Of a stretch of 64,000 nt of DNA, positions 30,138-34,181 are shown piece by piece. The notes under the pieces were generated by a model. It saw only the letters and a list, made by a program, of their open reading frames with translations. It ran no database searches and was not told the origin of the DNA. Numbering within the stretch: the stretch's first letter is position 1; every line of letters starts with the position of its first letter. Source of the stretch: Chromatiales bacterium (GTDB taxonomy: Bacteria > Pseudomonadota > Gammaproteobacteria > JAHELT01); NCBI GenBank assembly GCA_024644045.1, contig JAHELT010000007.1, forward strand, positions 36-64,035, given 5' to 3'. The translations under genes were made by a program, and so were the position numbers.

Positions 30138-30641
30138 TCACCGGTCGACCCGGTACACGAAATACGCCCAGCCGCGCGCCGCCAACGGCAGGGGCAACTG
30201 CCGCCAGCGGGGCACCTGCATTTCGCGATCGCTCAACACCAGGGCGCCGGCGTCCAGCAGACCGTCAATCAACGGCGCCAGTGCTGCTGCGAGGTGCGCG
30301 TCACCCGCGGAATCGTCGCTCCCCAGGTCCGCATGCACGAGTGCCACCTGCAGCGCGGCGATGCGCGGGCTGGCGAGCTGCTCGCGCAGGTCGCCGAGCC
30401 ATAGGCAGTCGGCGGGCGGAATGCAGTCCGGCGGTGCGTGCACCGCGCGATCGAAAACGTGAATCTCGCGCGCCGGAAACAGCTTGCGCAGATGATCGTA
30501 GGTGCGGCCCTTGCCCAGCCCGAGCTCGAGCAGCACGCCCGGGCGGCCGGCCAGCTCGCGCTGCGCAAACTCCAGGCACGCTTTCTGGGTGGCGAGCCTG
30601 GCGAGCATGCGCTCCAGCCGGCTCTGGCGCCTGTCGCTCAT
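30138..30641 (-). CDS. Small SAM-methyltransferase-like protein, last gene of the degenerate-ABC/cNMP operon
   Basis: ~168 aa from MSDRRQSRL. Gly-rich loop VLLELGLGKGRTYDHL...IHVFDRA resembles a SAM-binding motif I/II. Start ambiguous (30641 or 30662). Confidence 0.35.
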   Translation of the reverse strand: MSDRRQSRLERMLARLATQKACLEFAQRELAGRPGVLLELGLGKGRTYDHLRKLFPAREIHVFDRAVHAPPDCIPPADCLWLGDLREQLASPRIAALQVALVHADLGSDDSAGDAHLAAALAPLIDGLLDAGALVLSDREMQVPRWRQLPLPLAARGWAYFVYRVDR

Positions 30642-30661
30642 CGGGCCCCCGGCCGGCTGCA

Positions 30662-31129
30662 TCACTCCAGCGCGGCTTTCGCCAGCTTCTCCTTGGCGTC
30701 GCGCAGCTTGGCGGTGCTCTCTTCGAGCCGGTTGGCGAGCGTGCGGATGATCTGCACCGCAATGTCGGGCGACCCCTTGACCAGCTGCATGAACACGTCC
30801 TTGCTCACGTTCAGCGCGTGCACCGTGTCCTTGGCGCGCACGGTCGCGGTGCGCGGAGTGTCGCACAGGATCGACATTTCACCGATCACCTCGTTCTTGC
30901 CGCGCGTCGCCACCAGCACGGGGCCGTTTTCCGAATCGACCAGCACCTCCGCCGTACCCCCGGTTATGATGTAGGCGCTGTCGCCGTGCTCGCCTTCGTG
31001 GCAAAGCTCCTCGCCCGCCTGGAATTCCAGCCAGCGGCTGGTGAAAGCCAGCAACTTCAGCTTTGACGGATCGAGATGCGCAAACAGGCCGATGTTGCGC
31101 AGCAGCTTGGCTTCTTCTTCCAGACTCAT
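30662..31129 (-). CDS. Stand-alone cyclic nucleotide-binding (CAP_ED) domain protein
   Basis: 155 aa. cNMP-binding motifs (FQAGEELCHEGEHGDSAYIITGGTAEV...GEMSIL...RTATVRA). No HTH or other output domain. Confidence 0.8.
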   Translation of the reverse strand: MSLEEEAKLLRNIGLFAHLDPSKLKLLAFTSRWLEFQAGEELCHEGEHGDSAYIITGGTAEVLVDSENGPVLVATRGKNEVIGEMSILCDTPRTATVRAKDTVHALNVSKDVFMQLVKGSPDIAVQIIRTLANRLEESTAKLRDAKEKLAKAALE

Positions 31130-31236
31130 GACTCAAACCTCTGCGGAACGCACACCGCCGTCCCGCACCACCGGGGCTGCCAGGCAGCGGGGCCGCTCAT
31201 CCCACTCAGTATCGCAGCGTTTTCCAACACTTCCCC

Positions 31237-33882
31237 TCAGCCGTTGTGCAGCAGCGCCTTGAACGTTCCGTCGGCTTGCTCGAGCTCATCGAACGTGCCC
31301 TGCTCGATGACTCTTCCACTTTCCATCACCAGCGCTCTGTCGAATTCGCGGGCGTACTCCGCACGCCCTGAGACCCAGATCAGACCGCGCCCCTCGCACT
31401 GCTCGCGCACGCCCTTCAGGAGCTGCAGCTCCTTGGCACCGTCCAGCGTACTGGTGGCATCATTGACGATGAGTATGTCCGGCTGTTTAAGCAAGGCGCG
31501 CGCCACGGCCAGCTTCTGGCGCTGCTCCATCGACAGGCGTCCGCCGCCGATGCCGACATCATAGTCCAGCCCGACCCTGACGATGTCGACGCGCAGGCCG
31601 TGCCCGTCAATCACACTGTTTATCACGCTGCTCAGCCGCGCCTGGCCGCGCGCCTGCCCGTAGGCGAGCTTTCCGAAAAGGATGTTGTCCAGCAGCGTCG
31701 ATTCGCCGTTGTATGCATCGGCGTCGAAGAACGCCACCACGTCGCTCAGCTCGGACGGCAGATTAGCGCGAAACGCATCGCGCGCCTTGAGAATCCGCGT
31801 CTGCATTTGCTCGTCGATCAATCCCAGGCGGTGGCGCGCCGGGGCCAGCTTGAATGCCAGGGACAGAAATCGTGCCTGTGTCTCCGCATCCATCGCGCGC
31901 ATGCCCTGGGTCGAGATACGTTTCAGCAGCTGCTGGTACTCCGGCAGATCTTCCGCGCTGATGAACGAGAACTGCTCGAAAAACTCGTGGCCCGGCGGCA
32001 GGTCCGCGAACAGATCGACCATGGTGTCAGCGACCTTGCGGCCCACTTCGAGAAGATCGGTCTGCAATCCCGCCTCGGTCAGGATGTGCAGCATGTATTC
32101 GTGGTTGGCGATCTTCTCCAGATCGAACGTCGCGTCGGTCGGCGTGCCGAACAGCAGGTTCTCGGCGACCGACGCGTTCAGGTTGTAGCGGTTTTCCTCG
32201 AAGGGTTCGACCAGTCCCGACAGATCTTCTTCGCGCAGCCGCTCATGCAACGCGGCGCGCGCCTGCATGACGCGCTGCGAGAATTCCTCGCGCGCCTGCG
32301 GATCGATGGTGCTGTGCAGACCGAGATGGTAGATGTCTTCTTCGAGCCCCACCACACGCATCAGCTCTACGATCCGCAGCTCGAGCTGTTCGCCGTCGTC
32401 GACCCCGGCGCCCGCGTAGTCGACCCAGTCAGCCGTAAAAGCGTGCAGCGAGTTGCCGGTGCGCAGCGCCTCCTCGCGCTCGGCGGTCAGCGCCCGCTTG
32501 AAGCTCTCATCGATGTCGGCGAGGACCCTCGGGAGGTGCTTCAAAGCGTAGTGCATGTTGTCGCGCACGCTGCCGGGAAACAGGTACACGCTCGGGCCGA
32601 CGTAGCCGATACGGCGCCCGACCACCGACTCCGGCAGGTCCGCCGTGTTCTGATCGCCGATCGTGATACGCCCGGCCGTCGGCCGCAGCAGACGGGCGAG
32701 CAGGCGTGCGAACTCGTCGCGGCCGCTGCCGTTCGGCCCGGTGATCAGTACGTGCTCGTTCAGGCGCAGCTGCGCATTGACGCCGTCGACCAGCTTTATC
32801 AGCTGGTCCTCGCTGAAGCTCAGGTTGCTCGCCACCAGGTCGCCTTTCAGGGGTGGCACGGTCTCGGCTTCGTCCGCCACCAGCGCTTCATCCAGCATCT
32901 GCTGGGGCTCGAACTGGTCCAGCACCTGCGCGTACTTGACGCGTACGTCTTCCTTGGTCTCGTAGTACTTCAGCAGCTCTTTCCAGGGGTCGGCGAGATC
33001 CTTGTACGCGGCCAGCACTGCCACCAGCGCGCCCAGCGACAGCTCACCCATGATCACGAAATAGCCGCCCGCCGAGTAAAAGAAGAACGGCGTGATCTGG
33101 GCCAGGAAATTGTTCAGGAACTTGATGAAGAACTTTTTCCGGTAGATATGGTAGCGGATGTGGAAGATGTGCCCGAGGCGCGCGCTGATGTCCGCCCGTT
33201 CGTAGTGGGTGGTGTCGTTGGCGTGAATTTCCGCAATACCCGATACCGAGTCCCCGATCCGTGCGGCGAGCTGCCGCGCCGCGAGCACGCGCTGCTTGGC
33301 CAGCCGGTTCACCCGTCGCTGCAGCTTCGGAATCACGTACATCTGCAGCGGGTACGTGGCCACCGCCGCCGCGCCCAGAAACGGATCCTGGTTAAAAATG
33401 AAAAACAGATAGGTGAGCAGCAGACCACCCTGAAACGCGGGCAGGGAGAACGCCTCGCCGATGAATCCACCCAACGGTTCGGTTTCCGCGGTTATCATGG
33501 GAATGATTTCGCCGGACGACACGCGCTTGAAATGCGGCAACGGGAACCGCAGCAGGCGCGAGTAGAGCTGATAGCGCATGCGCCGCAGCATGCGTTCACC
33601 CAGCACGCCACGGTACACGTTCAGGAAGTACTTGAAGCCGCCATTGATCAACACCAGGAACAGAAACAGGCCGCACAGCGCGAACAGGTAGGTGATCTGG
33701 GTGAACTCGAACCCGAGCACGGCCTGCGGCATGCCCTGGCCGCCGATCGCCTCGTTGATGATGATCTTCGGCACCTCGAGCGAGAAGTACACGAACGGCA
33801 TGGACAGCGCGGTCACCACCAGCAGCACGATCTGCCCCTTCAGGCTGTGCTTCAGGATGTACTTGAACAGTGAGCGTTCCAT
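31237..33882 (-). CDS. ABC-exporter-like TMD-NBD protein with fully degenerate ATPase motifs and ~330-aa insertion in the NBD
   Basis: N-terminal six-helix ABC_membrane-like domain. NBD motifs all substituted: Walker A GPNGSGRDEF (K to R, S/T to D), Q-loop GYVGPSVYLF (Q lost), signature GGGRLSMEQRQKL, Walker B ILIVNDATSTLD (catalytic E to A), H-loop position GLIWVSG (H lost). Alternative GTG start at 33957. Confidence 0.7.
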   Translation of the reverse strand: MERSLFKYILKHSLKGQIVLLVVTALSMPFVYFSLEVPKIIINEAIGGQGMPQAVLGFEFTQITYLFALCGLFLFLVLINGGFKYFLNVYRGVLGERMLRRMRYQLYSRLLRFPLPHFKRVSSGEIIPMITAETEPLGGFIGEAFSLPAFQGGLLLTYLFFIFNQDPFLGAAAVATYPLQMYVIPKLQRRVNRLAKQRVLAARQLAARIGDSVSGIAEIHANDTTHYERADISARLGHIFHIRYHIYRKKFFIKFLNNFLAQITPFFFYSAGGYFVIMGELSLGALVAVLAAYKDLADPWKELLKYYETKEDVRVKYAQVLDQFEPQQMLDEALVADEAETVPPLKGDLVASNLSFSEDQLIKLVDGVNAQLRLNEHVLITGPNGSGRDEFARLLARLLRPTAGRITIGDQNTADLPESVVGRRIGYVGPSVYLFPGSVRDNMHYALKHLPRVLADIDESFKRALTAEREEALRTGNSLHAFTADWVDYAGAGVDDGEQLELRIVELMRVVGLEEDIYHLGLHSTIDPQAREEFSQRVMQARAALHERLREEDLSGLVEPFEENRYNLNASVAENLLFGTPTDATFDLEKIANHEYMLHILTEAGLQTDLLEVGRKVADTMVDLFADLPPGHEFFEQFSFISAEDLPEYQQLLKRISTQGMRAMDAETQARFLSLAFKLAPARHRLGLIDEQMQTRILKARDAFRANLPSELSDVVAFFDADAYNGESTLLDNILFGKLAYGQARGQARLSSVINSVIDGHGLRVDIVRVGLDYDVGIGGGRLSMEQRQKLAVARALLKQPDILIVNDATSTLDGAKELQLLKGVREQCEGRGLIWVSGRAEYAREFDRALVMESGRVIEQGTFDELEQADGTFKALLHNG

Positions 33883-34181
33883 GTTACTGGGCGTGTTGAA
33901 CGGGTGGGGTTTGCTGTTGTTGTTGGTGGTCGCCGGGATCTGACGGGTTGCTCGCACCTATGGTAACTTGCCAACCTGTCCCGTGCACCTGGCGCGCATG
34001 TGTGCCGAAGTACGTGGAGTGCTCGTTTTCAATGGCTCAATCAAGGCGTTACCTGCTCATCCAGGTCGAGCTGCCGGCGGCAGTGCGCGGTGCGAAATCC
34101 CGGCAGCGTGTGCTGAGGGCTCGCCCGTGTGCCTCGGCCGCCTTTCAGGGACCATGCACCCGGGCGCGGTAACGGCACCGC

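Follow-up and report, generated by a model that had tools for sequence, protein, structure and literature searches.

Alternating access driven by ATP is the defining property of ATP-binding cassette (ABC) exporters, and to our knowledge the degenerate sites of known ABC proteins always lie opposite a working one. In CFTR and SUR the exporter fold is used for gating or regulation, with extra regulatory sequence in or after nucleotide-binding domain (NBD) 1 and with control linked to cyclic-nucleotide signalling; both are full-length eukaryotic proteins in which ATP binding is retained, with hydrolysis at one site in CFTR, and they are regulated by protein kinase A phosphorylation or Mg-nucleotides. 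Non-consensus residues are tolerated in a nucleotide-binding site of heterodimeric exporters, a group that has been reviewed (PMC7756269). Our literature search surfaced a sole precedent for the system described here, HetC of Nostoc PCC 7120. This is a peptidase-containing type IV exporter whose CAP-family ligand-binding domain is required for function; the N-terminal domain of the cyclic nucleoside monophosphate (cNMP) type bound guanosine tetraphosphate (ppGpp) in vitro, not cAMP, and the catalytic Glu is essential (PMC10986499). Here we describe a locus on contig JAHELT010000007.1 of a Chromatiales bacterium (GCA_024644045.1), analysed as a stretch of 64,000 nucleotides (the window), in which an ABC-exporter-like protein, P0004, lacks the canonical catalytic set and has part of its NBD apparently duplicated, and is encoded next to a stand-alone cNMP-binding protein, P0002, that is strongly indicated to be its dedicated partner. 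The source genome is a 5.4-Mb draft of 289 contigs from a lineage with few relatives.

The ABC Exporter-like Protein

The maximal open reading frame (ORF) of the ABC-like gene runs over 31237..33957 on the reverse strand from a GTG at 33957. In agreement with the N-termini of homologues, the start was placed at the ATG at 33882, which gives a gene at 31237..33882 and a protein of 881 amino acids. Pfam recognized ABC_membrane (1e-19) and ABC_tran, the latter split over two separate stretches, and with 71.8 bits for PF00664 (cut-off 28) and 58.8 bits for PF00005 (cut-off 25) the protein qualifies as a half-transporter of the type IV exporters. The AlphaFold2 model of the full protein had a mean predicted local distance difference test score (pLDDT) of 85.7 and a predicted template modelling score of 0.80. 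Its top Foldseek matches were type IV ABC exporters, namely P-gp, PCAT1, TmrAB, TM287/288 and the Cgt exporter, and in its secondary structure six long helices make up the transmembrane domain (residues 1-330, 32893..33882). No NCBIfam model scored above its cut-off for this protein; the best was NHLM_micro_ABC1 (TIGR03796) with 184.5 against 853.3, and the equivalog models for MsbA (TIGR02203; 177.5 against 602) and HepA (NF045513; 173.8 against 725) also stayed below theirs.

The motifs were read from a HMMER alignment of P0004 to human ABCB4. Walker A, at residues 382-390 (32713..32739), reads GPNGSGRDE where ABCB4 has GSSGCGKST, so that K is replaced by R, S by D and T by E and the pattern GxxGxGK[ST] is lost; the columns of the family alignment place the motif likewise. 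The C-terminal core of the NBD (residues 776-881, 31240..31557) aligns to ABCB4 523-627 and contains LSMEQ for the signature LSGGQ, LIVND for the Walker B sequence LLLDE (D to N, and the catalytic Glu to D), the D-loop STLD and, at the H-loop, VSGR for IAHR, with Gly839 in the place of His. Furthermore, the A-loop Tyr is replaced by Glu358, and the Q-loop Gln aligns to Pro430, one residue after Gly429. Two canonical ABC exporters from the same genome, taken as a control, retain GxxGxGKS, LSGGQ, DE and H. As aligned, the canonical catalytic set is absent from this copy, and its capacity for ATP binding or hydrolysis is judged from these motifs.

Walker A and the signature are 401 residues apart in P0004 vs 103-105 in the two canonical exporters of the same genome, which implies a net insertion of about 300 amino acids. 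The extra segment covers residues 448-775 (31558..32541) and consists of an extended first helical subdomain and a full extra copy of that subdomain. Three related motifs recur along the NBD, RDNMHYA (441-447), AENLLFG (573-579) and LDNILFG (731-737). When sub-alignments were compared with hhalign, residues 556-715 matched residues 716-800 with a probability of 96.7% and E 4.8e-10, over a span from VEpFD..YN..VAENLLFG to the signature position, where the middle copy (repeat 2, residues 556-715, 31738..32217) holds a vestigial FSFIS; residues 420-555 matched 716-800 more weakly (E 2.9e-5). By these alignments the insertion arose when the alpha-helical subdomain of the ABC fold was duplicated in tandem, and it is not a foreign domain, and the NBD would then carry three tandem modules that each run from Q-loop to signature. 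We know of no other NBD built in this way, and our literature search found no precedent for such a triple module.

A structural comparison is in line with this. AlphaFold2 modelled the insertion alone with a pLDDT of 91, and in an exhaustive VIA-align search the top rows were mostly helical subdomains of ABC NBDs, placed on the middle copy (Z 4.2-5.4, rmsd 2.5-3.2 Å, about 70 residues) and including MRP1 NBD1 714-784 and CFTR NBD1 495-565; since the Z values are low, we take this result as corroboration of the sequence comparison only. A Foldseek search of the insertion alone against the PDB returned nothing at E <= 0.001. In the ESM Atlas the structure search retrieved the insertion fold only in clusters of the ABC-like family, several of which also have cNMP_binding, and the feature search retrieved unnamed clusters only.

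A preliminary description, made from the letters of the window, had proposed an 880-900-residue protein that joins a transmembrane domain to an NBD and keeps the ABC fold, on which Pfam, AlphaFold2 and Foldseek now agree. It had also read Walker A, signature, Walker B and H-loop as degenerate, and the alignment to ABCB4 gives the same reading, with no canonical Walker A Lys, Walker B Glu or H-loop His that would expose a misalignment. The claim that every residue needed for hydrolysis was lost is slightly overstated: Lys, Ser/Thr, Gln, Asp, Glu and His are indeed replaced, but the glycine scaffold of the P-loop, the Ser and Gln of the signature and the D-loop Asp are kept. The Gly assigned to the Q-loop was the residue preceding the aligned Pro430. 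The insertion with (D/E)N(I/L)LFG repeats was correctly placed, at a net size closer to 300 than to the proposed 330 residues, and the suggested profile searches yielded no Pfam family for it and the duplicated helical subdomain by hhalign.

Distribution and Conservation of the Family

A word-indexed search returned 120 full-length homologues with 52-78% identity and a mean column identity of 59%, among which many columns are invariant, some of them inside the insertion. With the insertion alone as query, 1031 clusters (50% identity) were found at E <= 1e-3 and 730 at E <= 1e-10, and a scan of species genomes gave 439 relatives. Named carriers are Nisaea, Azospirillum, Sneathiella, Inquilinus, Defluviicoccus, Stellaceae, Casimicrobiaceae and Arenicellales. 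Of 400 other genomes of the phylum, sampled evenly, 31 (about 8%) carry the family, some with two or three copies. Both congeneric genomes searched have an insertion-bearing orthologue without internal stops, and the genome scan found a single insertion-bearing copy in the source genome.

The consensus of the 120 close homologues, with Walker A GxxGSGK[DEN]E, Walker B hhhhNE and signature LS[LA]AQ, is non-canonical throughout. The Walker A Lys is retained in 99 of them and the following Ser/Thr in only 11; at Walker B, Asn replaces Asp in 107 and Glu is retained in 88, while Glu occupies the A-loop Tyr position in 109. The combination of Lys, Glu, His and Gln is found in none of the 120, and neither is a canonical LSGGQ signature. 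The R/D/G motif state of P0004 is shared by its closest homologues P0005-P0007 and is specific to this clade. A compensatory charge swap, in which a Ser to Asp change in Walker A would go with the Asp to Asn change in Walker B, was considered and rejected, as members with Ser have the Walker B Asn in 10 of 11 cases. Among distant members, P0213 has the Walker A sequence GSGKSTL together with a canonical Walker B (ILILDEA), and P0201 has GSGKSSL but LLVVNEA.

In an alignment of 79 diverse full-length members, the conservation ranks among the 881 columns were 415 for the Walker A Lys, 644 for the Walker B Glu, 665 for the Q-loop position and 840 for the H-loop position. Residues G404, N575, G579 and G737 are invariant and P148, A292, R542 and R701 are 99% conserved; they are spread over the membrane domain, NBD and repeated ENxxFG motifs. 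The transmembrane domain is the best conserved region (mean column conservation 0.56 vs 0.41-0.46 for the parts of the NBD). These alignments show the catalytic positions to be relaxed across the family, which is large, intact, under selection and apparently undescribed. The preliminary description had not recognized it as a known family either, and no Pfam or NCBIfam model or paper was found for it: the literature retrieved on ABC proteins with cNMP domains, degenerate or non-catalytic NBDs, duplication of the helical subdomain, the Pfam names and Methyltransf_17 holds no description of this family.

The cNMP-binding Protein

The gene directly downstream of the ABC-like gene on the same strand (30662..31129) encodes P0002, a stand-alone CAP-type cNMP-binding protein of 155 amino acids with no output domain. 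It consists of the cNMP_binding domain (PF00027, 71.7 bits against a cut-off of 27.5; E 5e-20) and a C-helix only. The residues G83, E84, R93 and A95 of its phosphate-binding cassette, G-E...R-T-A, are conserved in 62 orthologues. The CRP model matches P0002 at positions 22-138 of 214 only (54.9 against 266), and the protein ends after the C-helix without a helix-turn-helix. Its score for cyc_nuc_ocin (TIGR03896) is 46 bits against a cut-off of 161, and its domain is single, not tandem. The predicted ligand is a cyclic nucleotide, which is not certain because the homologous domain of HetC bound ppGpp instead.

Neighbourhoods were counted in the best 80 loci. Of the 74 among them with enough sequence, 62 have a cNMP orthologue directly downstream of the ABC-like gene on the same strand, and a further 5 have one at another place in the locus. 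In a distant member with split genes (L090) the cNMP gene is still adjacent, the other neighbours differ and there is no glycosyltransferase (GT) cluster. All 18 of the scanned homologues of at least 1010 amino acids have a C-terminal cNMP_binding domain. For P0136 this fused domain is 42% identical to P0002 over its whole length, including the family-specific SKLKLLAF. On a FastTree phylogeny of 77 members the fused state requires 4 changes, of which at least 3 are forced by supported branches. Gene linkage and fusion are strong indications that P0002 is a dedicated partner of the ABC-like protein.

Co-folding of NBD residues 330-881 with P0002 gave a score of 0.59, vs 0.00 for the best of 3 controls. 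The mark used was reached by 58 of 80 solved complexes and by 2 of 110 mismatched pairs, and it was reached with a score of 0.60 or less by only 7 of those 80 and by both of these pairs. Agreement between runs covers at least 88% of contacts, and P0002 has a pLDDT of at least 83. The prior for binding between the two proteins is already high because of the fusion evidence.

Gene Layout and the Methyltransferase Gene

The third gene on this strand (30138..30662) encodes a small protein resembling S-adenosylmethionine-dependent methyltransferases. It matches Methyltransf_17 (PF12692) over its full length, at profile positions 1-159 of 160, with 146.9 bits against a cut-off of 27 (E 6.3e-43), and is a predicted methyltransferase. 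Its ATG at 30662 overlaps the stop codon of the cNMP gene (TGATG), the gap between the ABC-like and cNMP genes is 107 nucleotides, and no terminator-like site was found between the three genes. Their co-transcription is plausible from this layout. The stretch was found in sediment, soil and marine DNA runs, and no RNA data set with it was found.

Of 72 loci, 38 have a Methyltransf_17 gene after the cNMP gene. In L090 the gene in this place (5018-5665) encodes a class I methyltransferase that falls in a different Pfam family (Methyltransf_23/11/25), and a triad with non-orthologous methyltransferases may recur. The preliminary description had proposed a three-gene set. Its 155-residue cNMP protein without an output domain was borne out, as was the co-occurrence of this protein with the ABC-like protein, by adjacency in the 62 of 74 loci and fusion in all 18 long homologues; the methyltransferase gene does lie downstream on the same strand here, but its link with the other two is looser across loci. 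Beyond the methyltransferase gene, at 26785-29943 on the reverse strand, are genes for a gamma-glutamyltranspeptidase and an MFS transporter, neither of which stays with the module in other genomes.

Glycosyltransferase Cluster and Neighbouring Genes

Divergently from the ABC-like gene, on the forward strand, runs a series of three genes with overlapping stops and starts. Two of them encode GT4 glycosyltransferases, GT4a (34182..35486, Pfam Glycos_transf_1) and GT4b (35483..36583, by Pfam), whose start overlaps the stop of GT4a, and the third a histidine phosphatase (36580..37167, His_Phos_1, E 3.1e-40). They occur within 6.5 kb of the ABC-like gene, GT4a upstream of it in 52 and the other two in 50 and 45 of 56 loci, respectively. 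On the reverse strand follow a gene for a conserved 255-residue protein (orf255, 37164..37931), with full-length tblastn matches beside GT genes in about 50 loci, and two further GT genes, each present in 50 of the 56 loci: GT28a, which is GT28/GT1-like (37922..39058, Glyco_tran_28_C), and the GT28-like GT28b (39135..40535), weakly similar to the MJ1255/VC2487 family by Pfam and NCBIfam. The nearest solved relatives of GT4a are PimB' and BshA (E about 1e-11), too distant to name a substrate, and a PDB sequence search with GT28b gave nothing useful. For orf255, Pfam, NCBIfam and PDB sequence searches gave no match; its motifs WWRDDDA and HGYAH recall polysaccharide deacetylases. In all three genomes checked in which the ABC protein is only 41-44% identical, the four GT genes and the cNMP gene occur together, in differing order and on differing strands, and orf255 is present in two of the three. 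One distant genome has the GT28b, GT4a, GT28a, ABC and cNMP genes all on one strand.

Next to the cluster, at 40632..42020 on the forward strand, lies a gene for a membrane-anchored class III adenylate/guanylate cyclase of 462 amino acids (Guanylate_cyc, PF00211, 98.7 bits against a cut-off of 21.9; E 3.8e-28). Full-length orthologues (58-64% identity) are found inside the cluster in four gamma- and beta-proteobacterial loci (L045, L061, L064, L065), and other cyclase-domain genes adjoin the module in L025, L084 and L093. An antisense ORF at 40623..41888 on the reverse strand was rejected as a gene of the cluster, being a shadow of the cyclase gene. Read by eye, the Lys that usually specifies ATP appears to be Gln in this cyclase (QFQGD), so that its substrate may be ATP or GTP. 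The source genome has an unusually large repertoire for cNMP signalling: it encodes 27 class III cyclase domains that pass the Pfam cut-off. The conserved GT cluster and the neighbouring cyclase point to a substrate and to a signal source for the module.

The next gene, at 42051..42740 on the reverse strand, encodes a 229-residue protein with a weak NAD_binding_10 match only and tblastn matches in L031, L045, L064 and L065; it accompanies the cluster only in its gamma- and beta-proteobacterial versions. On the other side of the ABC-like gene the window holds a complete Gsi/Opp-type importer (5474-11443, forward strand), with a fused double ATPase with oligo_HPY, an SBP_bac_5 binding protein and two permeases, and directly upstream of this operon a gene for a DUF1611 protein of the P-loop/Rossmann type (4282-5349, forward strand). 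In 53 of the 80 loci, and again in two of the three distant genomes, an orthologue of the importer ATPase is encoded no further than 10 kb from the ABC-like gene, and the importer may belong to the same functional neighbourhood. In L010 an ORF of 166 codons without a Pfam match (3092-3592, reverse strand) lies between the gene for the 255-residue protein and the importer ATPase gene; it recurs in 43 loci, with no counterpart found in the window.

Proposed Function and Alternative Explanations

By these comparisons the ABC-like protein and the cNMP sensor form a core unit, which in this lineage would be part of a glycoconjugate pathway. Its best-supported mode of action is cNMP-controlled translocation or gating of the glycoconjugate of the cluster without canonical ATP hydrolysis, a reading to which we give about an even chance. 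The NBD has been rebuilt, with the helical subdomain from Q-loop to signature in three tandem copies, and the residues for binding and hydrolysis of Mg-ATP appear no longer to be selected. The main argument for a function independent of canonical hydrolysis is the conservation pattern, which is the reverse of that in an active ABC ATPase. P0004, probably a homodimer, would work as one unit with its CAP-type subunit, which in this lineage is a protein of its own and elsewhere forms the C-terminal domain. The membrane class III cyclase of the same cluster probably makes a cyclic nucleotide that would bind the cNMP subunit, and this subunit would dock on the enlarged NBD and set the conformation of the membrane domain. 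In this way a translocation path would be opened or closed for a glycoconjugate, such as a glycolipid or an oligosaccharide glycoside, that the four GT enzymes, together with the phosphatase and the 255-residue protein, would build. In this scheme we infer the physical binding of the two proteins, the identity of the ligand, the cluster product as cargo and transport without ATP hydrolysis. More specifically, the ABC fold might no longer use ATP as energy source or switch at all and might act on a glycoconjugate as a cNMP-gated channel, facilitator or scramblase through the CAP subunit on the triplicated helical subdomain, which we consider possible though doubtful.

Several observations weigh against cNMP-controlled translocation or gating. 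The loci compared are from related species, so that the neighbourhood counts overstate their independence. In distant members the ABC and cNMP core occurs without the GT cluster, beside a sulfatase-family or HGSNAT-like gene; the cargo may therefore vary by lineage or not be a glycoconjugate. The fused forms P0167 and P0177 continue into a GGDEF-like domain (weak matches, E 3e-8 and 4e-4), and such triple fusions of ABC, cNMP_binding and GGDEF-like domains hint at a link to cyclic di-GMP signalling and fit signalling better than transport. Co-folding lends weak support to binding between the ABC-like and cNMP proteins, and the structural match of the insertion has a low Z. Lastly, the Lys and the Glu are kept in 99 and 88 of the 120 close homologues, and because most of them keep these residues, some nucleotide binding or slow hydrolysis is possible in the family.

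This last point bears on the explanation that P0004 remains an exporter driven by ATP, whose catalytic site is unorthodox and whose cNMP subunit only modulates an ordinary cycle, as proposed for HetC. The frequent Lys and Glu would suit such a pump, as would the P-loop glycines, signature Ser and Gln and D-loop Asp that are kept in P0004, the canonical Walker A of the distant P0213 and P0201 and the canonical Walker B, found in P0213 only. HetC offers a precedent, being a catalytically active exporter that carries a domain of the cNMP type (PMC10986499). Yet this copy has other residues in place of Lys, Ser/Thr, Gln, Asp, Glu, His and the A-loop Tyr, no close homologue has the full catalytic set, and the low conservation ranks of the catalytic columns are opposite to what active ABC ATPases have, which makes an ATP-driven pump rather unlikely here.

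Improbable to a similar degree is a membrane sensor or transducer that transports nothing, and that would respond to cues in the membrane or periplasm or to how the glycoconjugate pathway stands and, with the cNMP domain, control partner enzymes or second-messenger output. ABC proteins that serve as regulators are known, for example SUR, and the GGDEF-like domain of P0167 and P0177, the varied neighbours of the module outside this clade and the 27 class III cyclase domains of the genome would all fit such a role. The GGDEF matches are weak, however, the membrane domain is the most conserved part and the exporter architecture is kept, and a link to a biosynthetic GT cluster that is this tight and survives rearrangement typically marks a step of export or flipping.

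It is very unlikely that P0004 is the degenerate half of a heterodimer with a catalytic partner encoded elsewhere. Heterodimers with a single degenerate site are common among type IV exporters, TM287/288 and TmrAB are among the structural matches, and the genome has several canonical half-transporters. The genes of heterodimer pairs are normally adjacent, however, and no second exporter gene is conserved nearby; the sole recurrent ABC neighbour is the ATPase of the GsiA/Opp-type importer, which has its own binding protein and permeases, and the genome contains one insertion-bearing copy only. The decaying pseudogene without conserved orthologues that the preliminary description had allowed for, or an annotation or assembly artefact, can practically be dismissed: motif loss taken alone and the draft state of the genome in 289 contigs would fit it, but 881 codons are open, hundreds of full-length homologues (among them the 120 close ones with 59% mean column identity, beside the 1031 insertion clusters) have invariant residues also in the insertion, the congeneric orthologues have no internal stops, and P0005-P0007 share the R/D/G state.

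Significance and Comparison With Known Systems

A large bacterial family, present in about 8% of the sampled genomes of the phylum, thus apparently has both nucleotide sites degenerate, catalytic positions free to drift, part of the NBD duplicated and a cNMP sensor as obligate partner. If true, this would be a new way to operate or regulate the ABC exporter fold, and cNMP signalling in environmental Proteobacteria would have a direct, non-transcriptional target in the membrane. If P0004 is indeed gated, it would be a prokaryotic counterpart to the repurposing of the fold in CFTR and SUR, with another trigger. The analysis also flags a conserved and uncharacterized cluster of four glycosyltransferases, and the cultured carriers Azospirillum, Nisaea, Sneathiella and Inquilinus, among them A. 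halopraeferens DSM 3675, N. nitritireducens DSM 19540 and I. limosus, make the question testable.

The system resembles HetC in that a type IV ABC exporter fold is tied to a CAP-family ligand-binding domain. Unlike the ABC-like protein, HetC has this domain at the N-terminus, a canonical NBD and a C39 peptidase, and no insertion in the NBD. The NHLP/NHLM exporters (TIGR03796, TIGR03797) with cyc_nuc_ocin (TIGR03896) are a precedent for a separate cNMP-domain protein that goes with an ABC exporter. They differ in being canonical ATPases with tandem cNMP domains in the accessory protein and a peptide cargo, and the scores of the proteins described here lie far under the cut-offs of these models. 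MsbA, the cyclic-glucan exporters NdvA/ChvA/Cgt and PglK, which are among the sequence or structure matches, are type IV half-transporters that move products of GT pathways, but they are canonical ATPases without an insertion or a cNMP partner (MsbA score 177.5 vs 602). TM287/288, TmrAB, BmrCD and TAP1/2 share the fold and tolerate non-consensus residues at a nucleotide site, and they retain one consensus site, whereas the ABC-like gene alone would give two identical degenerate sites, with the helical subdomain triplicated. CFTR and SUR have no CAP-type domain and no homology to the ABC-like protein beyond the ABC core, so that the likeness would lie in the use of the exporter fold for gating or regulation.

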